Source: Elusimicrobiota bacterium
GTDB lineage: Bacteria > Elusimicrobiota > Elusimicrobia > UBA1565 > UBA9628
NCBI GenBank assembly: GCA_016218545.1
Contig: JACRDQ010000020.1
Coordinates: 34,455-98,454 of the forward strand
Direction of reading: 5' to 3'
Length of the DNA stretch: 64,000 bases
The notes beneath the pieces were generated by a model. The model searched no databases and was not told the DNA's origin. It saw nothing but the letters and a program-made list of their open reading frames with translations. Shown piece after piece: positions 2 through 35,259 of the stretch; position 1 is the first letter of the stretch; each line of letters opens with the position of its first letter. The position numbers and the translations under genes were made by a program.

Positions 2-2269
2 CTGTCCGAGCCCGAGTTCCGGGGCCTGGTGCGGGCCGCCAAGGAGCTCCGGGCAGGAGCCGCCTTCTTCACGCACCCGCTGTTCCGCAGGCAGCGCCTC
101 CTCCTGGCCGGGAAGGTGCCGGGCCTGGAGACCGCGGTCTGGACCGGCGGCCTGCTCCTGGCCCGGGACCTCATGGCCAGGCTGGGCCTGCCGCTCGGCC
201 CGGAGGGCTTCCATCACGAGGACGTGCTCACGGACCCGGAGGCTGCGGCGGACTACCGGTGGGAGCCGGGCAACGCGGCAGCCTCGGCCCCGGGACACGA
301 CGTGGTCTATCTCTACACCGGCTCGGACTGCGCCTACCGGCGGCCGGTGGCAGGCAACCCCTGCTACGCCGGAGTATCGCTGCCTCCCTCGGCCCACGCC
401 TTCGGCTGCGCCTTCTGCGGGGACCGCCAGGACCGGCCGGCGCCGGGGCCGACCGTGTCCGCCGCGTGGATCGAGAAGCAGATCCGGGACCTCACCGCGG
501 GCCGCAGGCCGGGCCAGCGGCCCGCCGCCCTGGTCCTGCCCGACGTAGGAGACGCGGAGCTCCTGGCCAAGACCATGGCCAGCATGCGCCGCCGCGGCAT
601 GGGCAAGACCCCCCTGCTCATGGGCGTGCGTCTCGACCGCCTGCTCCGGGTCAGGCCGGCGCTCGAGGATCTCCTGGCCGGCATGAGCAAGGGCGAGTCC
701 ATCCACTGCGTCACGGTCGGAGCGGAGAACTTCGCGGCGGACGAACTCCGGCGCTTCAACAAGGGCTTCGAGCCCTTGACCGTGGTCCGCGGGATCAACC
801 TCCTCAAGGAGCTGGAGGCCTCGCAAGGCGGCAGGTTCCTCTATTCCGGGTACAAGCCCCTAGCCGTCATCCTGCTGACCCCTTGGACGCGGCCCTGCGA
901 CCTGGCCTACAACCTCCGCCTCATCCGGCACTTCAAGCTCGAGGACGAGGCAGGCAACCTCTTCAGCTCGCGCCTCCGCCTGCACCCGGAGCTGCCCATC
1001 ACCTCCCTGGCCGCCAAGGACGGTCTCCTGGGCAGGACGCCGGACCGCGCCCTGGCCATGGCCAGGCGCAGGCTGGAGCGTTCCGAGCGCGGCTGGCGCT
1101 TCAAGGACCCGCGCATGGAGCCGGTCAACAGCCTGGCCGGCCGGCTCGAGCGCAGTCCCTCCCTGGCCGGAGACCGCCTCTACGAGGATATCCAGAAAGG
1201 CCTGGCCTGGACCGAACGCGACAAGGGCCAACTGACGGACATCCTCTTGGCCTCGGCCAGGCTCGCTGACTCCTCCCCAAAGCCCATCCCCGCAGAGAAG
1301 CTCTTCGAGTCCAGCCTGGCGGCCTGGCGCGCCGGGCCGGCACCCCTGCTCCCCGGCAAGCGCCTGGGCCTCGAGCTCCTGGGACCTGCGGAGTACGTGG
1401 AGCGCTGCCTGGCCCTGGTCCATCAGGGACCCAGAGCCGCCTTGTCCCTGGAAGGCCTGCCTCCGGCCGCCGAGCTCAAGGGCCTGGCAAGGACCGGCCC
1501 TGGCCTACACGCCAAGGTGGTGGAGCGAGGCCCGGCCTCCACGCTCTACGCGGCCCGCGACGCCAAGACCTTGGAGCGCCTCATCCGCCTGGAGAGCGGG
1601 CCCAAGGCCAAGCAGGCTCGAGCCTCGACCATCAGCGAGCTCGGGAAGCTCTACGGCTACCCCTCATGCTGCGTCCGGGCCTGGCTGAAGAACCCCTGGC
1701 GCCAAGGAGGCTTCAGCGAATGGCTGGCGCTCCTGACCCGCGCAGCTTCTCCGGGCCCGTGCCCTGGCCTGCACCTGCCCCTCCTGGTCTCGGACTTGGC
1801 TTTCATCCCCTGCTCCGCCCAGTGCCGGGCCGCTGAGGCTGCCTGCCGGTCCTGGTTCAAGGCCCTGGGAGGCTCCCTGACCGCGAAGGCCCTGTCCGAC
1901 AGGGTCTTCGTGCACTCCCTGCTGGACCGGGCGGACGGCGCCTCCTTCATCCCCGGGTCGAGGCAAGGAAGGGTCATCCGCTACGACCCCTCGAGCGTCA
2001 CCGGCACTGAGGGCGGTGTGGCCGCGTGGCTCAGGAAAGGGGACCGGCTCGAGCAAGACTGCGGCCAGGTCTCGGTCTTCAGGGGCGAGAAGGCCCTGCG
2101 GCGCTGGGTCGCGGAAGCCGCGGTCTGGGACAGACAGGCCATGGCGGACCCTGAGTTCTGGGTCGAGCTCGCAGCCGCGGCCCTGAGACGCTCAGGGCCG
2201 GCCGGCGTCCGCCAACCGCGCCTCAAGCATGCTCACCAGGCCGGTCAGCAGCTTCTTCTCAGCCTCTGA
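2..2269 (+). CDS. Large uncharacterized protein with C-x10-C-x13/14-C-x2-C-G motif, possibly a non-canonical Fe-S or radical-SAM-like enzyme. 5' end is outside the window. Paralogue of the convergent gene at 2192-4240.
   Basis: Frame is open from the window edge and reads as a real protein. Carries motif SDCAYRRPVAGNPCYAGVSLPPSAHAFGCAFCG and a shared TPWT motif. Clear paralogy with the next gene. Overlaps the convergent gene end by about 78 bp. Confidence 0.5.
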   Translation: MSEPEFRGLVRAAKELRAGAAFFTHPLFRRQRLLLAGKVPGLETAVWTGGLLLARDLMARLGLPLGPEGFHHEDVLTDPEAAADYRWEPGNAAASAPGHDVVYLYTGSDCAYRRPVAGNPCYAGVSLPPSAHAFGCAFCGDRQDRPAPGPTVSAAWIEKQIRDLTAGRRPGQRPAALVLPDVGDAELLAKTMASMRRRGMGKTPLLMGVRLDRLLRVRPALEDLLAGMSKGESIHCVTVGAENFAADELRRFNKGFEPLTVVRGINLLKELEASQGGRFLYSGYKPLAVILLTPWTRPCDLAYNLRLIRHFKLEDEAGNLFSSRLRLHPELPITSLAAKDGLLGRTPDRALAMARRRLERSERGWRFKDPRMEPVNSLAGRLERSPSLAGDRLYEDIQKGLAWTERDKGQLTDILLASARLADSSPKPIPAEKLFESSLAAWRAGPAPLLPGKRLGLELLGPAEYVERCLALVHQGPRAALSLEGLPPAAELKGLARTGPGLHAKVVERGPASTLYAARDAKTLERLIRLESGPKAKQARASTISELGKLYGYPSCCVRAWLKNPWRQGGFSEWLALLTRAASPGPCPGLHLPLLVSDLAFIPCSAQCRAAEAACRSWFKALGGSLTAKALSDRVFVHSLLDRADGASFIPGSRQGRVIRYDPSSVTGTEGGVAAWLRKGDRLEQDCGQVSVFRGEKALRRWVAEAAVWDRQAMADPEFWVELAAAALRRSGPAGVRQPRLKHAHQAGQQLLLSL

Positions 2270-4240
2270 CCACACCGGGGTCTGGGCCAGGTACACGGCC
2301 TTGAACCTCCGCGTCTCGAAGAAGCAGGGCCCCTGGCTCTGCCGCTCCTTGAGGTCGAGCACGATCCTCCTGTCGTCCAGCAGGACGTTCAGGCGGAATG
2401 CGCGGCCAGGACACCCGCGGAAGGACGCGGCTGACACCGACTCGAGCTCGAGCTTGGCCGCGACCTTCAGCTCTTTGCGGACCTGCGCCACTGCGCGCTG
2501 TTCAGCGGAGGACGGCTTGGAGAGGACCGGAGGATTGTCCTCCCCTGCCAAGGGCTCGGGAGCGCCGGCATGCGCTCTTTTGACCCGCGCCACAGCCTCG
2601 GCCAGGAGGCCCGTCCTCGACCACGTCTCCTGAGCGCGCTCGAAGAGCTCCAGGAGCTCCAGAGCCGCCTCGAGGATGCTCCACGGAGGCCTGGTCGTGC
2701 GGCCTGAGCACGCTTCATCCCGGAACACGCTCGACAAGAGGTCGTATTCCGGGTCTCCGCGGAACAGGGTTCGCGCCTCGGGACACTCCATGGCGACATA
2801 GAGCCGGACGAGGATGCGGAAGAAGTCCGCGACCTTGCGGTCCTTGAACCGCCAGGGCATGGAGCTCCACAGCACCTGGAGACCGAAGCATGGATAGAAG
2901 AGGAGCCCCGGGTCCTCGTACTCGGGGAGGATGACGCCGCCCTCGTGCTCCGCCAGAGCGGCCAGGGCGGTCCCTTTACGGAGCATCAGGCTCGTGCAGA
3001 GCCACAGCCCGTTGCCGTCGAACCCGCGGCGGCCGGCCTCCCGGAGGTTCACGCGGAGTTCCGCGAGCGTGGTCCACGGGGTGAACAGGAGCATCAGCCA
3101 GTTCCTGCCGTCCCCCCGCGCCTGGAAAGCCTTCGGCCAGCGCCGGCTCCAGCCCGCCATGAGCCTGAAGACCTCGTCCACCTGGGCGATGGAGATGTCC
3201 TTGTTGTAGAGCCTCATGACCGCTGGAGAGAAGTTCTCGATGCCCATGACCTCGAAGCTCATCCGGTGCCCGGCTGCCGCGGCCTTGGGCAGGACCGCCG
3301 AAATGCGGCTCCGGGATGAGAGGACGTCGTCGATGCGCGGGCAGAAGACGAACCGGGCCGGCCTCAGGCCGATGCGCAGCACCATGTCGAAGAAGAGGTC
3401 GATGCGATGGAAGAGGCCGAGGTCGTAGACGATGTAGGCGCCCCGGCTCCTGGATTGCCGAGGCCCTCCCCGTGACGCGGCCTTGAGCTGGCGCTCAGCC
3501 AAGTCCAGGGAGCCGGCCTGGTGCCCGGCCAAGGGCCCGGTCTCGATGGAGCCCCCGCAGAAGCTGCACCCGGGAGGAAGGTCCGGCGCGCCCACCACTC
3601 CCCTGAAGCAGGGGTTCTTGGCGGGAGAGGGCCTGCCCCTGCAGCTGCGGCCTCCCAGGATGATCACCGGAGGGCCGTCCTCGGCCTTGGCCATGGCGCC
3701 CACGGGCGCGGCGCGGTAGTCGGGCTCCACCGCGTCGAGGACGGACCTGCCCTCCCCTGGATGCGGACCCGCTCCCAGCCACCTGGAGAACCAGCCGGGC
3801 TCATGGGTGAGTTCCCGCCCCTCGCCCTTGCCCCTGACCAGCCTGAGGTAGGGGTCGAGCTCCGGGTCGTGCTCGCCCCACCGGAGAGCCTCCATGTCGA
3901 ACTCGCAGGGAAGGACCATGAAGCGCCGCGCTCCAGAGGCGCGGACCGCGGACCGGACCCCCGGGACGAGGAGCTCGTTGGAGACCACGTGCGTGGGTCG
4001 GAAGGCCTTCAGCCTCCTCTTGAGGACCTCGAGGTCCCCCCTCTCCAGGCCGGCCCGGAGCACGCGGCCGAGCGGCCGCTCCCACGCGATGCCGGTCCTG
4101 GCCTTGAAGAAGAGCCACTGGGCCGGCACGCCGCAGTCCCGCGCCACCCCCTTGAAGAACGGATAGAACATGGAGGTCTCGCGCCGGTCATCCATGCTCG
4201 AGAGGAACTCCAACAGCAGCAAGCGGGGGTTCGGACTCAC
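2192..4240 (-). CDS. Large uncharacterized protein with C-x10-C-x13-C-x2-C-GG motif, paralogue of ORF 2-2269.
   Basis: 682-aa ORF. Motif RSCRGRPSPAKNPCFRGVVGAPDLPPGCSFCGG and an LLFTPWT motif are shared with gene 1. GTG start at 4240 lies 5 nt after the upstream stop, with an alternative ATG at 4195. Same-strand operon with the genes at 4246-7965. Confidence 0.55.
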   Translation of the reverse strand: MSPNPRLLLLEFLSSMDDRRETSMFYPFFKGVARDCGVPAQWLFFKARTGIAWERPLGRVLRAGLERGDLEVLKRRLKAFRPTHVVSNELLVPGVRSAVRASGARRFMVLPCEFDMEALRWGEHDPELDPYLRLVRGKGEGRELTHEPGWFSRWLGAGPHPGEGRSVLDAVEPDYRAAPVGAMAKAEDGPPVIILGGRSCRGRPSPAKNPCFRGVVGAPDLPPGCSFCGGSIETGPLAGHQAGSLDLAERQLKAASRGGPRQSRSRGAYIVYDLGLFHRIDLFFDMVLRIGLRPARFVFCPRIDDVLSSRSRISAVLPKAAAAGHRMSFEVMGIENFSPAVMRLYNKDISIAQVDEVFRLMAGWSRRWPKAFQARGDGRNWLMLLFTPWTTLAELRVNLREAGRRGFDGNGLWLCTSLMLRKGTALAALAEHEGGVILPEYEDPGLLFYPCFGLQVLWSSMPWRFKDRKVADFFRILVRLYVAMECPEARTLFRGDPEYDLLSSVFRDEACSGRTTRPPWSILEAALELLELFERAQETWSRTGLLAEAVARVKRAHAGAPEPLAGEDNPPVLSKPSSAEQRAVAQVRKELKVAAKLELESVSAASFRGCPGRAFRLNVLLDDRRIVLDLKERQSQGPCFFETRRFKAVYLAQTPVWSEAEKKLLTGLVSMLEARLADAGRP

Positions 4241-4245
4241 GGGCT

Positions 4246-6879
4246 TCAGTCCGGCATGGCCTCAGGGAAGAGGCCGGCCATGCGCGTGAAAAAGGCGGAG
4301 CAGAGCCTCCCCATCCTCATCTGGCTCTCGAAGATCGCGGCAGCCTCGGGCCTGCGGGACGCGGCTCTCCTCATGCTCTCGATGTGCGCGTCACGGTCGC
4401 GCCTGAGTTCCTCCAGACGCCCGATCGCGGCGATCTTCCCCACCCTGTTGACCTTCTTCATCTCGGGCAGGACCTTCTCCACGGGCAGGGTGCACCCGAT
4501 GTACACGGACCCGTCCGTGTCCACGGTCAGGCCGCGCGAGGCGAGGAGGGGCTCGTCTGCGGTGTTGGTGAGGTTGGCCAGGCCCATGCGCCGGCCCGAG
4601 GCCCGGAGCCTTCCCAGCAAACGATAGACCTCCTCGAGATAGCGGCGGCCGGCCTCCCCGGTCCAGAGCCCCCCGACCTCGTAGAGCAGGTCTAGCTCCC
4701 TTACCCCGAGCTCCGCGAGGTACATGCCGTTGTCGCTCAGGCGCCCCACGCCTGCGGGCCGCACGACCATGCTGGCCTGCACGTGCCAGCCCGATCTCAG
4801 GGCCCGCTGGAGGTTGGCGAGGAGCTTGCGGTAAGGATAGGACACGCCGGAGTCACGCAGGGGCCGATACTCGCCCTGGGTCAGGCGGTCGCCGTCGATG
4901 CTGAAGATGACGCGGACCTCATGCTTCCTGAGGAAGTCGAGGGTCTCGGCGTCCAGCAGGAGGCCGTTGGTGGCCACGGAGCAGAACGCCTGCCTGCCGA
5001 ATTCCAGGGCCCTGGCCCTCACCTGGTCCGCCGCCTCAGCCACGAGGTCGCGGCGGAGCAGGGGCTCCCCGCCGAAGAGCTGGATGTCCACGCTCGGGCC
5101 CGGCCCGTCGATCATGAGGTCGATGGCGCGGCGCAGGACCTCCCGGGACATGTCCGGACCCCGCCGGACGAGCTGGCAGTAGCGGCACCCCATCTGGCAG
5201 CGCCGGGTGAGCATGGGCATGAGACTGCGCAGGGAAGGGAACGCCCCGGCCGCGCCCGCGTGCCTGGACTCGGGCGAGCGCAGGGTCCCTCCCTGGCTCT
5301 GCGGCCGAAGGTCGCGGCAGAAGCGGTCCTCCGAAGCTCCCTTCGCGCCCTTCCCGAAGAAGACCCCGTAGCGCTCGCAGGGGAGGCAGGCCTTGTGCAG
5401 GGTCCGGAACGAGGGCCGCCGCCCCTCGCGCAGGTCCGCGGCCATATCGAGGAGGAACGGCGAAGGCGGCCGCACGCACGCGTTCTCCGCCCGGCCCAGC
5501 TTCATGAGCGCCTCGATCTCCGGCCCGGAGAGGTGCTTCGAGGAGGTCACCACCGGGGCGCCGGCCCGGTGGCTCCGGCAGTAGTCCCGGAAGGACCGGA
5601 CGGGGCTCTTGATGCCCAGGGACTTGCCCTGCAGGTGCCAGGCCGAACCCGGATCCAGGGGAATGCGCTCCATGCCGAAGTCCGCGCCGGGGAAGCGGTC
5701 CGCCAGCGAGCGGACGAGGTAGAGGGTCTTGGCCGCGTGGACCGCGGTCTCGCCCGGCAGGCCGGCCGTGAAGTTGATCTGCGGCTTGATCCCGCGGTCC
5801 ACCATCAGCCGGACCGCGGCCACGAGCGCCGCGTTGGTGAAGGATGCTCCCTTGTTGCGGCGCCGGACCTCCTCGGACCCGCACTCGGGAGCGACCGCCA
5901 GGGTCCCCCTTCCCGGGAAGGTCCTGCTGAACTCGGCGATGAACTCCTCCGTGGGCAGGCCGAAGCACTCGAAGGCGGAGGTGAGGCTCAGCTTCCTGCG
6001 GCGCATGGCCCGGAAGAGCTCCGGGTAGAACCGCCCCCCGGGCGCGGGATCGAAGTTGAAGTGGACCGTGCCGATGCCGTGGTCCGCCAGGGCCTCCAGG
6101 TCCGCGAGCACCGAATCCCGGGACGCGAAGAGCACGCCGTTCCTCTTGAAGAGCATGCGCTGTTGGGCCGCGCCGCCTCCGCAGTAGGTGCAGTCCTGGA
6201 CGCAGCCCCGGCCAGGCACGCAGAAATAGACCGGAGCCCGCTCCGCGCCGGGGTCGAAATCCGTGGACACCAGGGACAGGTAGCGCTCGTGATGCCGGAT
6301 GAGGCGGAAGTTGGTGAACCTGAGCCGGTCGAAGAGACCCTGCGTCACCGTGTAGGACTGCGGGTTGTGGACGACCTCTCCGCGCCTGCGCCAGCTGAGG
6401 TTGGACACGTACCCGAGGTCCGCTCCGGGCCGGTCCAGGGCAGCCAGGAGCACGGCCAGGGGGAGCTCGGGGTCTCCGCGCACGATGAAGTCCACCTCCG
6501 GGAAGGAGCGCATGATCTCGTCCGCGAAGAAGGTGGCGGTGAACCCGCCGAGGACCGTCCGGCAGCGCGGCGCCGCCTTCTTGACGCCGCGGGCCGCTTC
6601 GATCACGTCGTGGCTCTGGGGGTGCCAGTACAGGTCGAAAAGGGCGGCCGAGTAGCCCCCGTCAGCCACGAACGACGGCAAGTCGAAGCCCGGGTCCAGG
6701 GTCTTCTCGAGCCCGGCATGCACCACGGACACGTCCCGGCCCGTCCTGACCAGGAAGTCCGCGATGGCGGGCAGGCCCACCGGGAGGAGCTTGGTCGGTC
6801 CCTCGATGCCTCCGCCCTTGGGGACGTGGATGAAGACCGCTCTGCCTGCTCCCGCTCGCGGTCCGGCCGACTCTCTCAT
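4246..6879 (-). CDS. Didomain radical-SAM protein. N-terminal half is a B12-binding-type radical SAM (CVQDCTYC, GLPGET). C-terminal half is a second radical-SAM domain of anSME/SPASM type (CQMGCRYC, FGGEPLL).
   Basis: 877-aa ORF with two separate CX3CX2C motifs about 420 residues apart. N-terminal Rossmann-like B12 region (FIHVPKGGG...) and a C-terminal GGEPLL glycine-rich SAM-binding motif. Confidence 0.7.
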   Translation of the reverse strand: MRESAGPRAGAGRAVFIHVPKGGGIEGPTKLLPVGLPAIADFLVRTGRDVSVVHAGLEKTLDPGFDLPSFVADGGYSAALFDLYWHPQSHDVIEAARGVKKAAPRCRTVLGGFTATFFADEIMRSFPEVDFIVRGDPELPLAVLLAALDRPGADLGYVSNLSWRRRGEVVHNPQSYTVTQGLFDRLRFTNFRLIRHHERYLSLVSTDFDPGAERAPVYFCVPGRGCVQDCTYCGGGAAQQRMLFKRNGVLFASRDSVLADLEALADHGIGTVHFNFDPAPGGRFYPELFRAMRRRKLSLTSAFECFGLPTEEFIAEFSRTFPGRGTLAVAPECGSEEVRRRNKGASFTNAALVAAVRLMVDRGIKPQINFTAGLPGETAVHAAKTLYLVRSLADRFPGADFGMERIPLDPGSAWHLQGKSLGIKSPVRSFRDYCRSHRAGAPVVTSSKHLSGPEIEALMKLGRAENACVRPPSPFLLDMAADLREGRRPSFRTLHKACLPCERYGVFFGKGAKGASEDRFCRDLRPQSQGGTLRSPESRHAGAAGAFPSLRSLMPMLTRRCQMGCRYCQLVRRGPDMSREVLRRAIDLMIDGPGPSVDIQLFGGEPLLRRDLVAEAADQVRARALEFGRQAFCSVATNGLLLDAETLDFLRKHEVRVIFSIDGDRLTQGEYRPLRDSGVSYPYRKLLANLQRALRSGWHVQASMVVRPAGVGRLSDNGMYLAELGVRELDLLYEVGGLWTGEAGRRYLEEVYRLLGRLRASGRRMGLANLTNTADEPLLASRGLTVDTDGSVYIGCTLPVEKVLPEMKKVNRVGKIAAIGRLEELRRDRDAHIESMRRAASRRPEAAAIFESQMRMGRLCSAFFTRMAGLFPEAMPD

Positions 6880-6885
6880 AGGGTC

Positions 6886-7965
6886 TCAGGAGGACCCCGG
6901 CGCGGCCCGGACGCATCGCTTGGCCACGGACGCGCAGTAGTCGCAGGATTCGCAGCGCCCCTTGCAGCGCATGACCCGCGAGACGAAGCCCTTCGGGATG
7001 AGGCGGTTGTCGCACGACACCAAGCCCTTGGCGTAGACCTCCTCGTCGCTGAACAGGGTGAAGAGATTCCCGTCGAACCTGCGGTCGAAGTAGGCCGTGA
7101 GGACGCCCTTGAGCCGCTCCGAGGAGTCCTCCCTGTAAGCGACCTTGAAGACGTCGGCCAGGCCGTGCCGCTCGTAGTAGCCGAGGTCCTCGGGCCGGAT
7201 GAAGGGACGCCGGATCTCGTCAGCTCCGCGGTCGCTCTCGAAGAGGCACCGGTCATGGTCGAGCCGGCCGCCCAGAGTCTCACGCCAGCCGCGGGGAGAC
7301 CACGCCTCGAGGACCCCCCTCAGGACCCCCCAATCCGCGTGCCTCCAGGCGTAGGGGCAGCCCTGGTAGCAGCGGAGCACGCCCAGGAGCTTGACCCTCA
7401 AGCGCGGGAACGCGGCCTTGAGCCCGGCGATGTCCTTGAGCGCGGCGAAGTCCCGGTTGATCTCCGGGTCCACGCACAGGCTGGTCACCCCCAGACGCGC
7501 CGCGGCCCGAGCCTTGACCAGGGAGTTGACGCCCATGTAGATGGAGGATTGGACCGCGATCGCCGGGAACTCCTTGCGCAGGAGCGGGACCAGGGCCGGG
7601 TCCGAGACCGTGACGCAGGTCAGGCCCGCGTCCCGAGAGAGCCGCCGGACGCCTTCGAAAATGCGCCTTATGTCGTCGAAGAACAGGGGGTTCTTGTTGA
7701 GGAGGAGGTTGGTCCCGATGCCCTGGCCGCGGCAGAAGCGCGCCAGAGCCGCGACCTCCGCGTAGCGCAGGGGCTCGAGCCCGACGTAGGCAGAGGAGAA
7801 GTCGCAGCCCTGCCAGCCGCCGAAATAGACCTCGCAGACCTGCCCGGACAGGGAGGCCCAACGGACCAAGCCCAGGTCGCCGTTATAGGGGATGGAGAAG
7901 AGGATGCGGCCGTGGCCCTGCACAGGTAGAGGATAGGTTCTCCCCACCCCCCCGTCAAGGCGCAT
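6886..7965 (-). CDS. U32-peptidase-like TIM-barrel protein with C-terminal Cys cluster, a putative Fe-S enzyme.
   Basis: The ILFSIPYNGDLGL...EVYFGG stretch resembles the U32 ELLAPAG...AVYLGG core. LRCYQGC and C-terminal CKGRCESCDYC...C Cys-rich motifs are present. First gene of the minus-strand operon. Start lies only 14 bp from the divergent gene, so it may be internal. Confidence 0.4.
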   Translation of the reverse strand: MRLDGGVGRTYPLPVQGHGRILFSIPYNGDLGLVRWASLSGQVCEVYFGGWQGCDFSSAYVGLEPLRYAEVAALARFCRGQGIGTNLLLNKNPLFFDDIRRIFEGVRRLSRDAGLTCVTVSDPALVPLLRKEFPAIAVQSSIYMGVNSLVKARAAARLGVTSLCVDPEINRDFAALKDIAGLKAAFPRLRVKLLGVLRCYQGCPYAWRHADWGVLRGVLEAWSPRGWRETLGGRLDHDRCLFESDRGADEIRRPFIRPEDLGYYERHGLADVFKVAYREDSSERLKGVLTAYFDRRFDGNLFTLFSDEEVYAKGLVSCDNRLIPKGFVSRVMRCKGRCESCDYCASVAKRCVRAAPGSS

Positions 7966-14783: not shown

Positions 14784-16163
14784 ATGAAACCCATCTCGAT
14801 CTCTACCGAGCCCGCGACCTTCCGGAGCCTCCGGACCCTGGCCCCGAGCGCGCGCTCAAGCCTCATCCGCAGGATCGAGGACGCGGCCACGAAACGCGCG
14901 TTCCATTACAAGGGCAGGCACGCGCATCCCATGGGCTTGGCGCCCATGGTCTCCACCAAGGGCCTGGTCCGGACCATCACGGCCCTGGTCCGCATCCTCC
15001 ATCGTTTCCAGACAAGGGCTCCGGACCTGCGGCTGGGGGACGTCCAGGGCTTCAGGGAGCTCATCCGTCTCGAGAAAGGCACCCGCCGGTGGTTCGACGC
15101 CACGGCCAGGCTCGTGCCCAAGCCCTGGCCCCTGCTCATGAGGCCGGACTTCTGCCTGGGGGAGCGGGCCGGGGTCCTGCGGCCCGTGCTCTTCGAGCTC
15201 AACTCCCTCATGCTGGGCGGGCTCTACATCCAGTCCGTGGCGCGCAGTCTCATGACCAAGGAGGTCCTGCCCGCGGTCGCGGGCAGCCGGCCCAAGCCGG
15301 GCTTCAAGCCCACCACGGACCTCATCGCCTACTTCATGCGCTGGATGCGGGACTGCCGCGCCAGGCACGGCCGCGGGCCCGGCGGGCTCGCCCTGCTGGA
15401 GAGCCTGCCCCCGGGCGGAGGCTTCAGCGAGCTGCCCCGAATCGCCCACGACATGGCGGCCGAGGGCTGGCGGGTGGAGCATGGGGACCCCAAGGAGCTC
15501 GAGCTCCGCAAGGGCCGGGTCCGGCTCCACGGCATGCCCGTGGCCTATGCCTACCGCGACTTCTCCTTCGAGGACGTGAGCGGCCCGGCGAGCCCGAGCA
15601 TGGCGGGCTTCGCCGCCCTTTGGGCCGCGGGCAGGGTGGCTCCGGGATTCGCGGCCGACTTCGACCAGAAAGGCATCCTGGAGTGCTTCACCTCGGAGGA
15701 CTTCGCCCCGCTCTTCACCGCGCAGGAGCGCCGCTTGCTGGCCCGGCACGTGCCGTGGACCAGGGTGCTGACCGAGCGCAGGACCCTCTCGCCGGAGGGC
15801 CGGAGCGTGGATCTGCCGGCGTACGTGCTGCGGCGCCAGGCTGAGCTGGTCCTCAAGCCTTCCTGGGGCGCCGGAGGCGAGGGCATCCTCATCGGCCGGC
15901 ACACCCCGGCGTCCGAGTGGCGCTCGGCCGTGTCCCGAGCCCTCAAGGACCCCGGCTCCTTCGCGGTCCAGGCCTATGTTGACAATCCCCCGATCGCGTG
16001 CGCCTTCCTCAGGGACGGCAGGATGCGGTTCGAGGAGTGCCGCCAGACCCTCGGGACCTTCTTCGACGGCTCCAGGTTCGGCTTCCATCTCCGGGTAAGC
16101 CCCGGCCACATCGTCAATGTCGCGCAGGGAGGGGCACTGGCCCCCCTCTACATCCCCAGATGA
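14784..16163 (+). CDS. ATP-grasp superfamily protein, glutathionylspermidine-synthase or circularly-permuted ATP-grasp-like.
   Basis: VLKPSWGAGGEGILIG motif, typical of the ATP-grasp nucleotide-binding loop. ATG at 14784 follows an AT-rich TATAAT-containing region. The track's TTG start at 14751 is probably an artefact. Confidence 0.5.
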   Translation: MKPISISTEPATFRSLRTLAPSARSSLIRRIEDAATKRAFHYKGRHAHPMGLAPMVSTKGLVRTITALVRILHRFQTRAPDLRLGDVQGFRELIRLEKGTRRWFDATARLVPKPWPLLMRPDFCLGERAGVLRPVLFELNSLMLGGLYIQSVARSLMTKEVLPAVAGSRPKPGFKPTTDLIAYFMRWMRDCRARHGRGPGGLALLESLPPGGGFSELPRIAHDMAAEGWRVEHGDPKELELRKGRVRLHGMPVAYAYRDFSFEDVSGPASPSMAGFAALWAAGRVAPGFAADFDQKGILECFTSEDFAPLFTAQERRLLARHVPWTRVLTERRTLSPEGRSVDLPAYVLRRQAELVLKPSWGAGGEGILIGRHTPASEWRSAVSRALKDPGSFAVQAYVDNPPIACAFLRDGRMRFEECRQTLGTFFDGSRFGFHLRVSPGHIVNVAQGGALAPLYIPR

Positions 16164-17803
16164 CCAGCGGAGGCAGCATGCCCGAAGGCCCGAGACTCGA
16201 AGTCGCCAACCTCTGGGGGTCCCCCCGCGAGCGCGGCCGACAGATGGGAGAGCTCTTCGGACACCGCGTGCGCGAGAGCGGCATCGTGGACTTCTACCAC
16301 GACTACTGCAGCCGGCACATGCCCCGGCACCCGGTCGTGGCCGGGCTGGGCACCAGGCTCATGCTCTCCCTGGTCGCTCTGCGCTTCTCAGCCAGCGCCA
16401 AGGCCCTCATCCAGGGCTTCTGCGAGACCTCCGGCCTCGACCCGGGACGGGTCAGCCGCGGCTTCGTCATGCCCGACGTCCTCAACTTCCTCGTGGGCTT
16501 CTCCGGCCGGCTCGCCGGCCTGCCGACTTTGGGCTGCACCTCTGCCGCGGCCTGGGGCGACTACACCCGGGGCGGGAAGTACCTCTTCGCCCGCAACCTC
16601 GATTTCCCGGGCATGGGCTACTTCGACCGCTTCCCGGTGGTCTGCCGCCACAAGCCGGACCACGGCATCCCCTACGTGTCCGTGGGCACGGCCGGCCTCG
16701 TGGTGGACGGCATCACGGGCGTCAATGCCGAGGGCCTCATCGTGGCCCTGCACCAGCACATCTCGCGGGACGTCTCCATCCTGACCGGAGGCCGGCCCAT
16801 CCTCGACCTCGGCCGCCAGGTCCTGGAGGGCTGCGGGAACCTCCGCGATGCGGTGGACATGGTCTCGCGCTGGCGCACCACCAGCTGTTGGACCGTGATC
16901 CTCGGCAGCAGCAAGGAGCGCAAGGCCTGCGCGGTGGAGCGCTCCCCCGGCGCCTGCTGCCCGGTCTGGTCCGACACGGGCAAGCTCGGCCGGGCCAACG
17001 ACTTCGTCACCCCGCGCCTCCACGCCGGCGAGATCGACTACCGCCCCTGGCGCGAGTCCAGCCGCCTGCGGATCGGGCGGGTCGACGACCTGCTGGAGTC
17101 CCGAAAGGGGAGCCTTGAGCCCGCGTTCATGGCGTCGCTCCTCTCCGACCGCTACGACTCCGAGCGGGGCACCTTCAGGTCCTTCGCCCAGTCCATCGGC
17201 CAGGTCCACAACATGACCAGCGTGGTCTTCGAGCCCGACGAGGGCCGCCTCTGGGTCTCCGAGAGCCGCGCTCCGGCGCACCAGGGCCCCTACCGCCGTC
17301 TCAACCTCTGGGACGAGAGCCCGCTGGGAGAGCCGCTCGCCGGCGTGGTCGAAGGCCTGCCCCAGCCGAGGCGCGCGTCGCTGGCGACCTACGTGCGGTC
17401 CATCATGGATTGGCAGGCTCGCCGCAGCCCCTCCGAGATGCTTGAGGACCTCCACGAGGCCATGGAGGGGGACCCCGAGGAGCCCGTGTACCGCTACCTC
17501 CACGGCTTCTTCGCCATGAAGGCCGGCCTCTACGAGACCGCGGTGGAGGATTTCGCGGCCGGGTCGGCCATGAAGGACATCCCCCAGCGCCAGTCCGCCC
17601 AGAAGCTCTGGCACGCCAGGGCCCTGGACCTCCTCGAGCGCAGGCCCGAGGCCGTCGAGCGCTACAGCGAGCTCTGCAGGGCCTCGGACCTCTGGCCCGT
17701 GCTGCGCCGCGCCGCGCTCCACGGGGTCTCGCGCTCCTTCACCAAGCGCAGCCTGGCCCGCTGCTCGCCCGACTTCTTCTACGGCGACGTCTTCCCGTAC
17801 TGA
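16160..17803 (+). CDS. Peptidase C45 family Ntn-hydrolase, acyl-CoA:6-aminopenicillanic-acid acyltransferase-like.
   Basis: PTLGCTSAAAWGDYTRGGKYLFARNLDFP matches the C45 Gly-Cys autoproteolytic site and oxyanion region. The ATG at 16160 overlaps the upstream TGA as ATGA, which indicates translational coupling. Confidence 0.55.
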   Translation: MTSGGSMPEGPRLEVANLWGSPRERGRQMGELFGHRVRESGIVDFYHDYCSRHMPRHPVVAGLGTRLMLSLVALRFSASAKALIQGFCETSGLDPGRVSRGFVMPDVLNFLVGFSGRLAGLPTLGCTSAAAWGDYTRGGKYLFARNLDFPGMGYFDRFPVVCRHKPDHGIPYVSVGTAGLVVDGITGVNAEGLIVALHQHISRDVSILTGGRPILDLGRQVLEGCGNLRDAVDMVSRWRTTSCWTVILGSSKERKACAVERSPGACCPVWSDTGKLGRANDFVTPRLHAGEIDYRPWRESSRLRIGRVDDLLESRKGSLEPAFMASLLSDRYDSERGTFRSFAQSIGQVHNMTSVVFEPDEGRLWVSESRAPAHQGPYRRLNLWDESPLGEPLAGVVEGLPQPRRASLATYVRSIMDWQARRSPSEMLEDLHEAMEGDPEEPVYRYLHGFFAMKAGLYETAVEDFAAGSAMKDIPQRQSAQKLWHARALDLLERRPEAVERYSELCRASDLWPVLRRAALHGVSRSFTKRSLARCSPDFFYGDVFPY

Positions 17804-17807
17804 AATT

Positions 17808-17817
17808 GCTATAATCT
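17808..17817 (+). promoter_or_regulatory. -10 box TATAAT (TGCTATAATCTCC) for ahcY.
   Basis: AT-rich box in the 46-bp spacer. The same TATAATCTCC string recurs upstream of the gene at 56455. Confidence 0.4.
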
Positions 17818-17848
17818 CCGTCTGAGAAGGAACCTCGGAGGTATAAGG

Positions 17849-19183
17849 ATGAGCACGACGACCATGGACAAGACCGCCGCCAAGAAGGACTACAAGGTCA
17901 AGGACCTGAGCCTCGCGGAGTGGGGCCGCAAGGAGATCGAGATCGCGGAGAAGGAGATGCCCGGTCTCATGACCCTGCGCAAGGAATACGCGGGCAAGAA
18001 GCCCCTGGCCGGCGCCCGCATCGCGGGCTGCCTCCACATGACCACCGAGACCGCGGTCCTCATCGAGACGCTGACCGCCCTCGGCGCGGAGGTCCGCTGG
18101 TCCTCCTGCAACATCTATTCGACCCAGAACGAGGCCGCCGCGGCCATCGCGGCCGCGGGCGTCCCGGTCTTCGCCTGGAAGGGCGAGACCCTCGAGGAGT
18201 ACGACTGGTGCATCGAGCAGACTTTGCGCTGGCCGGACGGCAAGCCCTTGAACCTCATCCTCGACGACGGCGGGGACCTCACCAACATCGTCCATGACAA
18301 GTACCCCGAGCTCTTGAAGGGCATCGCGGGCCTGAGCGAGGAGACCACCACGGGCGTGCACCGGCTCTACCAGCGCCAGCAGAAGGGCACCCTGGGCGTG
18401 CCGGCCATCAACGTCAACGACTCCTGCACCAAGTCCAAGTTCGACAACCTCTACGGCTGCCGCGAGTCCCTGCTCGACGGCATCAAGCGCGCGACCGGCG
18501 TCATGGTCGCGGGCAAGGTCGCGGTGGTAGCCGGCTACGGCGACGTGGGCAAGGGCTGCGCGCAGTCCCTGCGCGGCCAGGGCGCCCGGGTCCTCGTGAC
18601 CGAGATCGACCCCATCATCGCGCTCCAGGCCACCATGGAAGGCTACCAGGTGGTCACCATGGAGGAGGCCGCCCCCATGGGCGACATCTTCGTCACGGCC
18701 ACGGGATGCAAGGACGTGGTCACGCGCAAGCACATGGACGCCATGAAGGACACGGCCATCCTGTGCAACATCGGCCACTTCGACCTCGAGATCGACGTCG
18801 CGTCCATCATGAACGACAAGAAGATCAAGAGGACCACGGTCAAGCCCCTCGTGGACCAGTTCACCTGGCCCAACGGCAAGACCATCACCCTCCTGGCCGA
18901 GGGACGGCTCGTCAACCTCGGCTGCGCCACGGGGCATCCCAGCTTCGTGATGAGCATCTCGTTCACGAACCAGACGCTCGCGCAGCTCGACCTGTGGACC
19001 AGCAAGGACAAGAAGAAATACGAGAAGAAGGTCTACACCCTGCCCAAGACCCTCGACGAGCGAGTGGCGCGCCTGCACCTGCCCAAGCTCGGAGCCAAGC
19101 TCACGACCCTCACCAAGACCCAGGCCGACTACCTGGGCATCCCGGTGGACGGGCCGTACAAGATGGACAGCTACCGGTACTGA
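17849..19183 (+). CDS. ahcY: Adenosylhomocysteinase (S-adenosyl-L-homocysteine hydrolase).
   Basis: Full-length match to the AhcY family, including the NAD-binding [10 protein letters not shown] motif and HFDxEID. GGAGG RBS 7 nt upstream. TATAAT box at about 17811-17816. Confidence 0.95.
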
Positions 19184-24612: not shown

Positions 24613-27600
24613 CTACCGGATCACTCTGACGCTCTGAGCGGCCGCGCTGGAGAACTCGTCGAGCCGGGCCGCGGCCTTGCGCAGGATCTCGCTGTAGGCC
24701 ACGCCCGTCAGGAGCTCGATGCCCTCGCTGACGTGCTTGACCGAGTAGATCTTGAATTTGCCCTCGGCCACGGCCTTCACCACGGCCTCGTCGAGCTGCA
24801 GGTCCTTGACGTTCGTCGCGGGCACGAGCACGGCGTTGAGGCCGTCGCGGTAGGCCTTGTTGACCATGCCGCTGGCCACGGCGTAGAAGCCCTCGATCTT
24901 GTGGTTGGCCCCGCCGATGGCCTGCACGTTGCCGAACTGGTCGGCCGAGCCGGTCACCGCGAAGCGCTGCTGGATCGGCACGCCCGAGAGGCTCGACAGG
25001 ATCGCGTAGATCTCGGTCGAGGTCGCGGAGTCGCCGTCGATGCCGCCGTAGTTCTGCTCGAAGGAGAGCCGCAGGTGCGCGGACACGGGCTTCTTCTGGC
25101 CGAAGGTGTGCTCGAGGTACCCCTGGATGACGCCCAGCGCCTTGTTGAAGCTCGGACCCGTCTGACCCGCGTCCCGGTCCACGGAGACGATGCCGGGCTG
25201 GCCGGGGGAGCTGACCACCGTGATCCTGGCCGGCACGCCGAAGTCGCCCATGACGGCCAGGCCGTTGATCTGGCCCACGGCCGAGCCCTGGACGTCGACC
25301 CGGAACACGCCCTTCTTGTAGATCTCCTGGATCCGCTCCCGGGAGCCGCCCTGACGGTCGAGCCGGGTGGCCAGCGCGGTCCGGACGTCCTCGCGCGTGA
25401 CGACCTCGTGGCCGGCTTCCTTGGCCCAGAAGGAGGCCTCCCGCATGATGCCGAGCAGGGCCCCGAACTGGGCGGAGAGCCGCTCATTGGAGTCCGCCAG
25501 CCGCGCGGAGTATTCCATGACCGCGCTGATGGCGTCCTTGGTCATGTCGAGCACCTGGCCCGCGCTCATGACGACCATCCTCTTGATGAAGCCGAGCACG
25601 CCCGCCACGGTGTCCTTGGTGATGGCGAGCGCCGACTGGAACTCCACCTTCGAGTTGAAGTTGGTGCTGAAGCTCTCGTCGTTGGACTCGAGCATCATCC
25701 GGATCATGGGCGAGCCGATGACCACGACCTTGACCTTGGCGGGGGTCATGTAGGCCTCGGTGACGCCGCCTTCCGCCGGATTGCCGTCCATGATCATGGC
25801 CTGGCCGCTCGAGAGCGCCCGCTGGAGCATCTGCCACGCGCCCGGAGCCCGCAGGACGTCGAGGGCATGGACCACGAGGAAGCCCCCGTTGGCCTTCTGG
25901 AAGGCGCCGGAGACCAGCGTGGGCCCTCCAGGGCTCTTCTTCTTGACCGCGCCGACGCCGGGGACGATCATGGTCCGGGTCTCGACGCCGCCGAAGAGGC
26001 CCTGGAAGCTGCCGCTCTTGGCGAAGACCACCGGCGCGCCCGAGCCGGGCTCGTTGGTGGAGATGACGTTCACCTTATAACTGTCAGCCGGGTCGGCGGT
26101 CTCCTGGGCGCCGCCGCCGAGCATGGCCATGACTCCGCCGGCCTGGGCCTTGGGCAGGAAGTCCTCGTAGCGCGCCGCGACGTGCCCGATGAGCCTCTCG
26201 ACGTAGTTGAGGGCGCCGATGTCCTCGGGGCCGGCGGGAGCCGCGGGCTTGGAGGCCGCCTCGAGCTCCTTGTTGAGCATCTGGACGAGGATCTTCATCT
26301 TCTCGACGTAGGGCATGACCGTCTTCTTGAGCTCGCCCTGCGCGGCCTTGACCTCGTCCATGGAGATGCCCTTGGCCTCGAGGAGCTCCGGGGTGACCGG
26401 CTGGCCGTCGAGGGTGAGTCCGATCCCGATCTTCATGCTGCCGTCGCCCGCGGGGACGAGCTGCAGCATCACGCCGAACGGGCCGACCTTGACGGTGGCG
26501 ATCTCCTCCTGGAGCTTCGCCTGGGCAGCCTCGAACCGGGCCTTGATCTCAGCCACGGCCTTCTGGTCGATCATCCCTCCGCCCACGACGGCCTGGCGGA
26601 CGGGCTCGCCGAGCTGGTCCGCGACCTGGGCCGCGGCCTTCCCGAGCAGCCGCGCGAGCACGGCCTGCGCCTGCTCCGCGTCGGAGTTGTTCTCCGTCAT
26701 CATCTGCTGGAACTTCTCGACGAACGGGGCGGCCGCCTCCTCGAGCTGGGACTGGACCTCGTCCCACTCCGCCTGGGTGACCTGGCCGGAGGCGATCTTC
26801 TCCTGCATCGACTCCTCGCTCATGGGCTTGCCGTCGAGCGTCGGCGCCACCATGAGGGAGACTCCCTGCTCCGTCTCTTTGAGGCCCATGTAGACGCCGA
26901 ACTTGCCGAGCTTGACCTTGGAGACCTCGGCGTCGAGGGCGGCCTTGCGCTCCGCGACGGCCGCCTTGAGCTTGGCCTCGATCATCTTCTTGGCCTGGGC
27001 AAGCTGGTCGGACTGCGCGAGGCCCGGGAGGACTTCCTTGAACTGCTCGATGAACGAGGCGACCGCGGCCTTGAAGCCGGGGGCCGCCCCGGCCGTGAGC
27101 TTGAGCAGCGCGGGCGCGTCCGGGTTCTGGAGGTTGGTGACGGCCACCAGGTCCCGGGGGGTGGGCATGGTGGGGGCGAGCTTCTCGAGCGCGGACCGGA
27201 CGGCGGTCTCGCGGCCCGAGCCCTCGAGGCCCGAGACGTAGACGTTGTACTTGTCGCCAGGAATCCTCAGGCCGAAGGAGAGGGCCTTGAGCGCCCGATC
27301 CTGGCCCACGATGGCCGCTTCGCCGGCCTTCATGTCCTTGGTGCTCTCGGGCAGCGCTTCTGCGTCAGGGGCCCACCGGAGCTGATCGACCGGGACCTCG
27401 AACTTGGAGGGATCCTGGGGCTGGGCCTTGACCCGGCCCATCTCGGCCTTCTCCGCGAAGCTCTTGCGAAGGGAGTTGGGAAAGAGCCGGACCTTCGAGA
27501 GGGTGCTCCAGATGCCGCCGGACTCGGCTGCGACCGGGACGGACTGGCCCTGGGAGGAGGAGTTCTCGTAGGCCTTGTCGAGGCCGGCTCCGACGTCGCC

Positions 27601-28074
27601 CTTGGGAGCGGCGAGGGCCTTGGCGAAGACCACGAGCTCGTCCCGGGTCTTGCCGGCGGGCAGGGACTCCGCGGCCGCCATGATCTTGGCCGCGTCCGCC
27701 TGGGTGCCGCCCGTGACGTCCACGCCGGAGGCCTGGAGTCTGTTGATCACGTCCACGACAGGGTCGGCCCCCAGAGCGGGAACGACGGCCGGCAGGGCCA
27801 CGTCAGGGGCCGAGACCGAGACCGCCGCGGGGTCGACCGAAGGGGTCAAGGACGCGGACGGGGAGTTGAGGGCGCCGCCCTGCAGGGAAAGGTTGGGGAG
27901 CTCGACGTGGTAGAGGCGGGCCCCGGCCAGGGAGGCCGACCCGGTCACGGGCATGGCTGAGATGCGGGCCGCCGCGATGTTCTGAGCGCTGAGAGGCGCC
28001 CCGCACGCGAGGACCGTGGCCACCGTGATGGCGATGATTCTTGAGGCGATGCCGGCTGCCTTGTTGTTGGACAT
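24613..28074 (-). CDS. LonC-like (Lon family S16) protease with N-terminal signal peptide, degenerate AAA-like domain containing a long coiled-coil insertion, and C-terminal Ser-Lys protease domain.
   Basis: C-terminal region matches the Lon proteolytic domain (GIDGDSATSTEIYAILSSL...ANHKIEGF). IVGQDRALKAL and a VSGLEGSGRETAV degenerate Walker A are present. ATG at 28074 is preceded by a GGGAG RBS. The track's start at 28119 is probably an extension. Confidence 0.7.
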   Translation of the reverse strand: MSNNKAAGIASRIIAITVATVLACGAPLSAQNIAAARISAMPVTGSASLAGARLYHVELPNLSLQGGALNSPSASLTPSVDPAAVSVSAPDVALPAVVPALGADPVVDVINRLQASGVDVTGGTQADAAKIMAAAESLPAGKTRDELVVFAKALAAPKGDVGAGLDKAYENSSSQGQSVPVAAESGGIWSTLSKVRLFPNSLRKSFAEKAEMGRVKAQPQDPSKFEVPVDQLRWAPDAEALPESTKDMKAGEAAIVGQDRALKALSFGLRIPGDKYNVYVSGLEGSGRETAVRSALEKLAPTMPTPRDLVAVTNLQNPDAPALLKLTAGAAPGFKAAVASFIEQFKEVLPGLAQSDQLAQAKKMIEAKLKAAVAERKAALDAEVSKVKLGKFGVYMGLKETEQGVSLMVAPTLDGKPMSEESMQEKIASGQVTQAEWDEVQSQLEEAAAPFVEKFQQMMTENNSDAEQAQAVLARLLGKAAAQVADQLGEPVRQAVVGGGMIDQKAVAEIKARFEAAQAKLQEEIATVKVGPFGVMLQLVPAGDGSMKIGIGLTLDGQPVTPELLEAKGISMDEVKAAQGELKKTVMPYVEKMKILVQMLNKELEAASKPAAPAGPEDIGALNYVERLIGHVAARYEDFLPKAQAGGVMAMLGGGAQETADPADSYKVNVISTNEPGSGAPVVFAKSGSFQGLFGGVETRTMIVPGVGAVKKKSPGGPTLVSGAFQKANGGFLVVHALDVLRAPGAWQMLQRALSSGQAMIMDGNPAEGGVTEAYMTPAKVKVVVIGSPMIRMMLESNDESFSTNFNSKVEFQSALAITKDTVAGVLGFIKRMVVMSAGQVLDMTKDAISAVMEYSARLADSNERLSAQFGALLGIMREASFWAKEAGHEVVTREDVRTALATRLDRQGGSRERIQEIYKKGVFRVDVQGSAVGQINGLAVMGDFGVPARITVVSSPGQPGIVSVDRDAGQTGPSFNKALGVIQGYLEHTFGQKKPVSAHLRLSFEQNYGGIDGDSATSTEIYAILSSLSGVPIQQRFAVTGSADQFGNVQAIGGANHKIEGFYAVASGMVNKAYRDGLNAVLVPATNVKDLQLDEAVVKAVAEGKFKIYSVKHVSEGIELLTGVAYSEILRKAAARLDEFSSAAAQSVRVIR

Positions 28075-28225
28075 TTCCAACTCCCTATACATGATGATGT
28101 GCTTCCCCAATGCATACATTATAGGAGGGTCGGCCGGATTTTTGATGGGCCGAAGGGGATGCCGAGCCGCTGAAAAATGGCCTACCAGTTGAGGGCCCTA
28201 TGGCCTACCATGCGCCCAAATCCAG

Positions 28226-31921: not shown

Positions 31922-32719
31922 TTAGCCTAGCATATCCTCCCCGGCTTTTTCAGGCGACCCTGCCCGGGCGCGGAGCCGGACCAGGACCGTCTGAAAATCC
32001 TCGGGCGGCTCGCACCGCACGGTCCTCACGGCCCCGCCCGCGGACCGGAAAGAGACCGAAAGGCCGTGGAGCATGAGGCGCGGAGCCCCGCCCACGGGGC
32101 GCTCCTTGCCGTAGAGCCGGTCGCCCAGGATGGGGTGCCCGGCGGCATAGAGGTGGACCCTGAGCTGGTGTCGGCGGCCGGTCACGGGCGCGGCCTCGAG
32201 CAAGGAGGCGTCCCGGAAGCGCTCGAGCACGCGCCAGCGCGTGAGCGCGTCCTTGCCCCCTTGCGCCACGCCCATGCGTCCGGAGCCGAACTCCTTGATG
32301 GGGCGGTCCATGGAGCCGTCGCGCTCCACGACGCCCTGGACGGCCGCGAGATAGGTCTTGCCGGTCTGCCGCCGCTCGAACTGGAGGCACAACGCGCGGT
32401 GGGCCGCGGGGTCCTTGGCGAAGAGCACGACACCGCTCGCGTCCCGGTCGAGGCGGTGGACCACGAAGACCTTGCCGCGGGCCGCCTCGAGCTCCTCCCT
32501 GAGGCTGGGGGCCGCAGACGCCCCCCGCCCGGGGATGACGTCGACGCCGGAAGGCTTGGCCAGGGCGAGGACGCCCTCGTCCTCGTAGAGGACCGTCAGG
32601 CCTCGACCGAGTTGAGGAACCGTGCGCTCTCCTCCGGCAGGGAGGTGTTGATGAACATCCCGGACCCGAGTTCGAAGCCCGCGGTCTTGTTGAGCCGCAC
32701 CACGAGGCTCAGGTACCAA
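31922..32719 (-). CDS. RluA-family pseudouridine synthase.
   Basis: HRLDRDASGVVLFAK catalytic motif, YLAAVQG and LHLYAAGHPILGD motifs. The true start is probably internal, because the track start overlaps the galT 3' end. Confidence 0.7.
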   Translation of the reverse strand: MVPEPRGAAQQDRGLRTRVRDVHQHLPAGGERTVPQLGRGLTVLYEDEGVLALAKPSGVDVIPGRGASAAPSLREELEAARGKVFVVHRLDRDASGVVLFAKDPAAHRALCLQFERRQTGKTYLAAVQGVVERDGSMDRPIKEFGSGRMGVAQGGKDALTRWRVLERFRDASLLEAAPVTGRRHQLRVHLYAAGHPILGDRLYGKERPVGGAPRLMLHGLSVSFRSAGGAVRTVRCEPPEDFQTVLVRLRARAGSPEKAGEDMLG

Positions 32720-33588: not shown

Positions 33589-33627
33589 GTCTCCCCCTGC
33601 CGGCACCGGCAACCGCATTCTACAATA

Positions 33628-34446: not shown

Positions 34447-34477
34447 GGCGCTCCGATTATAATATATCGTATCCCCC

Positions 34478-35236: not shown

Positions 35237-35259
35237 CCTCCCTCCGACCGCGACCAGCC

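Follow-up and report, generated by a model that had tools for sequence, protein, structure and literature searches.

At one end of a 64,000-nucleotide stretch of DNA from an Elusimicrobiota bacterium (GenBank assembly GCA_016218545.1, contig JACRDQ010000020.1, positions 34,455 to 98,454; henceforth the window, with a base composition of about 70% G+C), two genes, ORF1 and ORF2 (ORF, open reading frame), converge and overlap. We consider it likely that both encode class-B-like radical S-adenosylmethionine (SAM) enzymes with a split cluster motif, in which the canonical CX3CX2C loop of the [4Fe-4S] cluster would be interrupted, between its first and second cysteines, by an insert of about 21 residues (N-P-x-[FY]-x-G) to give CX24-25CX2C. 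The family to which they belong is large and has neither a name nor a Pfam or NCBIfam model. The pair is laid out as follows:

2 to 2269, forward strand: ORF1 (HY924_06000; P0182), a family paralogue with an extra cysteine-rich insert, cut by the window edge.
2192 to 4240, reverse strand: ORF2 (HY924_06005; P0001), 682 amino acids, a typical full-length family member.
2192 to 2269, no single strand: convergent 3′ overlap of 78 bp, comprising the last 26 codons of both proteins.

ORF1 and ORF2 are paralogues. BLASTP aligns their products at 28% identity over 240 amino acids (E=7e-14), the family hidden Markov model (HMM) matches ORF1 at E=1e-96 and ORF2 at 8e-178, and a third paralogue, P0016, is encoded in the same metagenome-assembled genome. 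An earlier note on this DNA, made from its letters, had described a convergent paralogous pair with an opposite-strand overlap of about 78 bp, and the stop codons (2267-2269 for ORF1, 2192-2194 for ORF2) confirm that length exactly. Because the C-terminal tails that the overlap encodes each align with orthologues, both frames appear to be real there and the overlap appears to be dual-coding rather than the artefact of a missed stop. ORF1 was listed as an open reading frame at 29..2269 (+), its frame being open from nucleotide 2 without a stop. A 15.9-kb Logan contig of the same locus gives a complete protein of 814 amino acids, of which the window covers residues 60-814; the 59 N-terminal residues that lie outside it complete the same N-terminal domain as in ORF2.

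The split cluster motifs of the two proteins are these:

3557 to 3643, reverse strand: ORF2, C200-x24-C225-x2-C228, including the insert of about 21 residues with its conserved N-P-x-[FY].
329 to 418, forward strand: ORF1, C-x25-C-x2-C (C169, C195 and C198 of the full-length protein).

The nature of the split can be seen by eye when ORF2, GGRSC[RGRPSPAKNPCFRGVVGAPDLPPG]CSFCGG, is placed against its neighbour at 4246..6879, which has a canonical B12 radical SAM domain and reads PGRGC[VQD]CTYCGG; GRGC-VQD-CTYCGG in the one thus corresponds to GRSC-[insert]-CSFCGG in the other. Over its whole length the ORF2 motif is C200-x10-C211-x13-C225-x2-C228-G, followed by FTPWT at residue 386, and that of ORF1 (nucleotides 329-418) is C-x10-C-x14-C-x2-C-G. 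CX3CX2C is absent from both. The cysteine pattern, the later [LF]TPWT and the lack of CX3CX2C had all been pointed out in the earlier note and are seen in both translations. The note had further taken C-x10-C-x13/14-C-x2-C-G as the shared motif and had named conservation of its cysteines in orthologues as a check. This description fits ORF1 and ORF2 themselves but not their family: in an alignment of 121 diverse members, from which all conservation counts given here are taken (in ORF2 numbering), C200, C225 and C228 are kept in 121/121, whereas C211, the cysteine of “NPC”, occurs in just 12 and is absent from 109. The pattern that prevails is C-x25-C-x2-C, with 25 residues from C200 to C225 in 98/121 (range 23-35). 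Since C211 is so rarely kept and this spacing so commonly, the signature that we propose for the family uses C200, C225 and C228, and not C211: G-x-x-C-x(~8)-N-P-x-[FY]-x(~12)-G-C-x-[FY]-C. One cysteine is present within the cluster loop in 43/121 relatives, and ORF1, ORF2 and some others have a fourth one there. Beyond the loop, R302, E335, P388 and W389 are as invariant as the three cysteines, and the conserved core residues are R302, D304, G333-x-E335, N346-K347 and T387-P388-W389. An insertion of x23-35 appears to be the longest so far noted between the first and second cysteines of the cluster loop, compared with x14 in QueE, and a full-text literature search returned no paper mentioning CX24-26CX2C.

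At the level of sequence profiles we show here that the family is homologous to B12 radical SAM enzymes. The template was an alignment of 11 canonical radical SAM enzymes with a B12-binding domain, drawn from the window and related loci, and hhalign matched the family to it with 96.2% probability (E=2.6e-9) over 310 columns, which pair residues 70-433 of the family with 63-392 of the template. None of six control templates (five with their columns shuffled, one reversed) exceeded 0.6%, and an alignment of SPASM-type radical SAM proteins gave 0.3%. When residues 201-221 were removed in silico, the probability rose to 97.4% (E=1.1e-11), and in the insert-deleted alignment C200, C225 and C228 fall in register with the C-x3-C-x2-C of the template, strand 1 lying opposite strand 1. 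Only the comparison of profile with profile is informative, the family matched to a single B12 radical SAM sequence reaching 3.8%. These results bear out the suggestion of the earlier note that the two proteins are divergent and of radical SAM type, with a non-canonical motif. Individual members point the same way: PF04055 (Radical_SAM) falls just below threshold in P0030 (28.8 bits against a cut-off of 29.5), reaches E=5.8e-6 in P0038 and matches 5/72 further members, and the only two NCBIfam models that recur among the 72 are both radical SAM families (9/72 and 5/72). Family residues 70-190 lie opposite the B12-domain region of the template, and PF02310 matches P0041 weakly (E=0.011); use of cobalamin is a prediction.

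The AlphaFold2 model of ORF2 (predicted local distance difference test score, pLDDT, 85; predicted template modelling score, pTM, 0.80) has four parts, namely a Rossmann-like domain, a core of about six beta-alpha units, a domain of helices and, at the C-terminus, a small beta domain, with the cysteine loop following strand 1 of the core. The parts and motifs that bear on the comparison with B12 radical SAM enzymes are:

3881 to 4240, reverse strand: ORF2 N-terminal Rossmann-like (beta-alpha) domain, residues 1-120, predicted from AlphaFold2 secondary structure, the hhalign match from residue 70 onwards and the fold match to CysS.
2936 to 3670, reverse strand: ORF2 residues 191-435, the core, with about six beta/alpha units predicted from AlphaFold2, alignment and hhalign.
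716 to 733, forward strand: ORF1 VGAENF, putative equivalent of G-x-E-S (GIES-like), the motif at strand 4 in B12 radical SAM enzymes.
875 to 889, forward strand: ORF1 LTPWT, putative counterpart of the G-x-P-G-E-T strand-5 motif.

The profiles and the predicted secondary structure both point to a partial (beta/alpha)6 barrel core of the radical SAM type, and residues 1-120 of ORF2 are predicted to occupy the position that the cobalamin-binding domain has in class B enzymes. A Foldseek search of the PDB with the ORF2 model returned CysS (9n1c), a cobalamin-dependent radical SAM methylase, as the only significant match (E=1.2e-5, probability 1.00), albeit with a TM-score of no more than 0.32. 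In the model, the invariant residues R302/D304, G333-x-E335 and T387-P388-W389 lie at or just past the C-terminal ends of strands 3, 4 and 5, respectively. As the C-terminal strand ends are the site of radical SAM active sites, this placement favours a working enzyme.

Class B radical SAM enzymes such as CysS, OxsB, TsrM and BchE/BchQ/BchR have the same order of parts as is predicted for the family, an N-terminal Rossmann-like domain and then a partial beta/alpha barrel, and their motifs have counterparts in the family: G-x-x-C ... C-x-[FY]-C, an R-x-D that follows strand 3, a G-x-E-[NS] at strand 4, and N-K. The family differs from them in having CX23-35CX2C instead of CX3CX2C, FTPWT instead of GxPGET at strand 5, helical and beta domains of its own at the C-terminus, and no Pfam or NCBIfam model. 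BchE, BchQ and BchR work beside the nitrogenase-like enzymes DPOR and COR in bacteriochlorophyll synthesis, a pairing that parallels the genomic linkage of the family described below.

The family is by no means confined to this locus. A word-indexed search brought up 41 relatives of ORF2. When 1.84 billion cluster representatives (50% identity) were searched exhaustively with the HMM, 1112 matched at E<=1e-3, of which 624 reached E<=1e-30, and most matches were 620-720 amino acids long and aligned end to end; family members carry the label “hypothetical protein” in their source records. The notion that such proteins are unique to this cluster thus has to be abandoned, with at least 624 representatives at E<=1e-30 and members in both Elusimicrobia and Myxococcota. 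In a scan of one genome per species, for which a 10-sequence alignment served as the query, 78 loci were found, all in Elusimicrobia or in Myxococcota and allied groups, and the cultured Polyangium fumosum DSM 14668 and Polyangium sp. 15x6 are among the hosts. The members in these two (L078:9527-12382 and L080:9428-12283, respectively; 952 amino acids each) have the split C-x24-C-x2-C and in addition a second, canonical CX3CX2C (CNQDCGMC), as does P0041; no nitrogen-fixation-like (NFL) gene was found within 10 kb of either.

We probed the 78 loci with the NifH-, NifD- and NifK-like proteins of two related loci, at a radius of 10 kb, and found nitrogenase-like genes near a family gene in 26 of them (13/22 in Elusimicrobia and 13/56 elsewhere), the other 52 having no NFL gene nearby. 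Genes of nifH-like or nifD-like type often directly adjoin family genes, and in L084, L011, L027 and L065 a family gene stands immediately upstream of a nifH-like gene. Orthologues of the ORF1 type take part in this and lie within NFL operons: in L084 they immediately precede nifH-like and nifD-like genes, and in L013 they follow nifHDK-like genes. In P0022, a called gene, the family member is joined to a NifD-like domain (PF00148 at residues 744-1013), and stop-to-stop open reading frames likewise join the family to NifD-like (Oxidored_nitro) sequence at L012:2471-5839 (-), L017:2-3295 (-) and L030:9587-13528 (+). These joins constitute Rosetta-stone evidence of a functional or physical link. 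There are up to 4-6 family ORF matches per locus, though pieces of a single gene may be counted separately among them. The loci match the published “Group VI” clusters of nitrogenase paralogues, to which they are assigned by likeness and not by a phylogeny of NifD. Group VI clusters have been described from groundwater Elusimicrobia, Myxococcales and Gracilibacteria; they contain many radical SAM genes, of which the description counted only those recognisable by Pfam, and their proposed role is the reduction of a tetrapyrrole (bioRxiv 10.1101/765248). A 2026 review gives the function of Group VI as unknown and the gene context as of “little help” (PMC13474568).

This genomic linkage, like the invariance of the motif, is a direct observation, and a mechanism can be proposed around the two. 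C200, C225 and C228 would hold a [4Fe-4S] cluster, R302/D304, E335 and T387-P388-W389 would form the pocket for SAM and substrate, and the enzymes would carry out radical, possibly cobalamin-assisted, chemistry. Since in related genomes family genes are embedded in NflHDK operons or fused to their genes, the family would most likely modify the same substrate or cofactor as the Group VI NflHDK reductases, for which a tetrapyrrole-type cofactor has been proposed as the substrate (bioRxiv 10.1101/765248). The NFL link holds for the family as a whole and would apply to ORF1 and ORF2 only by extension; the pair in the window probably acts in the pathway of the radical SAM cluster that adjoins it. 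As a more tentative extension, which we find conceivable but would not favour, the family could be the missing radical SAM partner of the Group VI NFL systems, which are reported to lack NifB, in a physical complex with NflD, at which the fused proteins hint, and coupling radical (perhaps cobalamin) chemistry to ATP-driven reduction of a cofactor-like substrate, with the 21-residue insert as an adaptation to it.

Several observations weigh against the class-B-like reading of the pair and its family. Neither ORF1 nor ORF2 matches a Pfam or NCBIfam radical SAM model itself, and over the region common to both there is no Pfam or NCBIfam match of any kind. A direct search of PDB sequences with either protein gave nothing significant; the family profile matched them weakly (9ccb at E=0.01 being the best, OxsB at E=0.39), and more weakly still when built from 121 sequences. 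The usual SAM-binding motifs are a GGE after strand 2, a ribose motif at strand 4 and GxIxGxxE at strand 5. In the family alignments the GGE-type motif is not conserved; at strand 4 G-x-E335 is invariant, and at strand 5 the family-specific TPW takes the place of the usual motif. An AlphaFold2 model of the core alone (pLDDT 84.8) found no significant Foldseek match; its best TM-score (0.40) was to PylB, a radical SAM enzyme listed alongside various TIM barrels. The evidence from fold is thus supportive but not strong, and it is therefore the profile evidence that carries the argument. As for the link to nitrogenase-like genes, tblastn detected no NFL homologue in the 64-kb window, and among the neighbours of the pair in the window only the radical SAM genes recur beside family members elsewhere.

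NifB, MarB and IsrB (NflB) share with the family the habit of a radical SAM gene adjoining nflH/D/K, often immediately upstream of nflH. The family might by analogy be an NflB-like partner that builds or inserts the NflDK metallocofactor, or that forms a complex with NflD, with no free-standing tailoring function. We regard this as unlikely, despite the fact that the family genes directly upstream of nifH-like genes are placed as nflB is in the order nflBHDK of other NFL systems, where it lies just upstream of nflH (PMC11423573), that the NifD-like joins in P0022, L012, L017 and L030 would fit it, and that genomes with Group VI NFL alone lack NifB homologues (PMC13474568). It is only in gene position that the family is nflB-like: no NifB-type model is among the Pfam and NCBIfam matches of ORF1, ORF2 and the 72 members, no sequence similarity to NifB models is seen, there is no homology beyond the superfamily, and architecture and motif are different. 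Moreover, so many paralogues (up to 4-6 per locus) would be less expected of a maturase than of tailoring enzymes, NFL genes are lacking near the family in 52 of the 78 loci and in the window, and the family has the architecture of class B enzymes, which act on organic substrates.

Less probable again is a radical SAM fold that does not serve a radical enzyme, with a structural metal or a fully ligated cluster, so that the family would comprise non-radical methylases akin to TsrM, scaffolds or pseudo-enzymes. The lack of a conserved GGE-type motif, the sub-threshold similarity to PF04055, the 21 residues inserted into the loop that normally holds the SAM-binding iron, and the fourth loop cysteine of ORF1, ORF2 and some relatives (one being present there in 43/121) would all be compatible with this. 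Against it, precisely the three canonical ligand positions are invariant while the fourth cysteine is kept in 12/121, the invariance of R302, E335, P388 and W389 at the barrel strand ends argues for a working active site, and QueE, with its CX14CX2C and an insertion between the first and second cysteines of the cluster loop, demonstrates that a long insert at this point is compatible with radical SAM chemistry (PMC4389238).

That ORF1 and ORF2 could be QueE-type enzymes (7-carboxy-7-deazaguanine synthase-like), as the CX13-14CX2C spacing had led the earlier note to consider, is very improbable and we reject it, because the spacing from the “NPC” cysteine to CxxC, its sole support, is superficial and involves a residue missing from 109/121 relatives, no QueE model matches ORF1 or ORF2 at E<=1 or the 72 members at E<=0.01, the window annotation has no queuosine genes near the pair, and the proteins, at 680-814 amino acids, are multi-domain, have a Rossmann-like domain at the N-terminus and can be aligned with B12 radical SAM enzymes. 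What survives of the resemblance is topological: both have an insert at the same place, between the first and second cysteines, with no detectable sequence relationship, the one in the family being longer and bearing its own conserved NPx[FY] signature. QueE is also much smaller and is not known to have a Rossmann-like domain.

Returning to class-B-like enzymes with a split motif as the preferred reading, ORF1 represents a rarer subfamily, with 7 matches and orthologues at 42-58% identity, which carries an additional module:

1634 to 1836, forward strand: ORF1-specific DUF483-like insert, residues 604-670 of the full protein (E=1.3e-5).

Its four cysteines, in GYPxCC and PCSxxC, are invariant in the seven aligned sequences of the subfamily and point to a second metal site. 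ORF2 and most of the family lack the module, whereas P0040 has it too; the C-terminal beta domain is absent from ORF1 and kept in some of its orthologues. A literature search for “DUF483” gave unrelated prefix matches only. In L083, an ORF1-type orthologue (P0183, 3935-6448, +) converges on a radical SAM gene (6422-7300, -) with a 3′ overlap of 27 bp, and overlapping convergent ends therefore recur around the ORF1 subfamily. Beyond the window edge, on the other side of ORF1, an upstream gene (L001:14421-14603, -) is represented by its C-terminal 60 residues, which end 4 bp before the ORF1 start; the contig ends within this gene, which from its sequence pattern may encode an AAA-type ATPase.

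The pair lies at the end of a radical SAM-rich cluster (4.2-24 kb) that comprises a fusion of B12 radical SAM and SPASM radical SAM proteins, a U32-like protein, a SPASM radical SAM protein, an AMP-binding enzyme, a B12 radical SAM protein, a further radical SAM protein, an AAT-like protein, an S-adenosylhomocysteine (SAH) hydrolase and a radical SAM-TPR protein. The following features of the window adjoin the pair or lie beyond it:

4246 to 6879, reverse strand: 877-amino-acid fusion of a B12-binding radical SAM protein (TIGR04190-like, residues 31-435) and a radical SAM/SPASM maturase-like protein (PapB-like, residues 550-759).
6886 to 7965, reverse strand: 359-amino-acid protein with a weak peptidase U32 match (E=1.3e-3), between radical SAM genes.
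15998 to 19183, forward strand: AAT-like gene (acyl-CoA:6-APA acyltransferase family; 6-APA, 6-aminopenicillanic acid), followed by SAH hydrolase, at the edge of the radical SAM cluster.
24613 to 28119, reverse strand; 32719 to 35970, forward strand; 35981 to 39481, reverse strand: LonB-like AAA protease (1168 amino acids) and two open reading frames of more than 1000 amino acids.

As only 6 bp separate the start of ORF2 from the fusion gene on the same strand, the two are probably co-transcribed. One homologue of the U32-like protein adjoins a family member in L057, and neither the AAT-like nor the SAH hydrolase gene recurs beside family members elsewhere; removal of SAH would suit heavy SAM-dependent methylation. 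The two long open reading frames have no Pfam match at E<=1e-4 and may be spurious, the genome being rich in G+C, or novel proteins. The remainder of the window has unrelated functions, and Rfam and tRNA scans of it were empty, with no cobalamin riboswitch.

Although invisible to Pfam and NCBIfam, the family ranks with the commonest neighbours of Group VI NFL genes and is occasionally fused to them, and naming it adds a defined component to these systems. With an HMM of the family, hundreds of Elusimicrobia and Myxococcota proteins now labelled “hypothetical” could be re-annotated, and with Polyangium fumosum DSM 14668 and Polyangium sp. 15x6 as cultured hosts the family is experimentally approachable.

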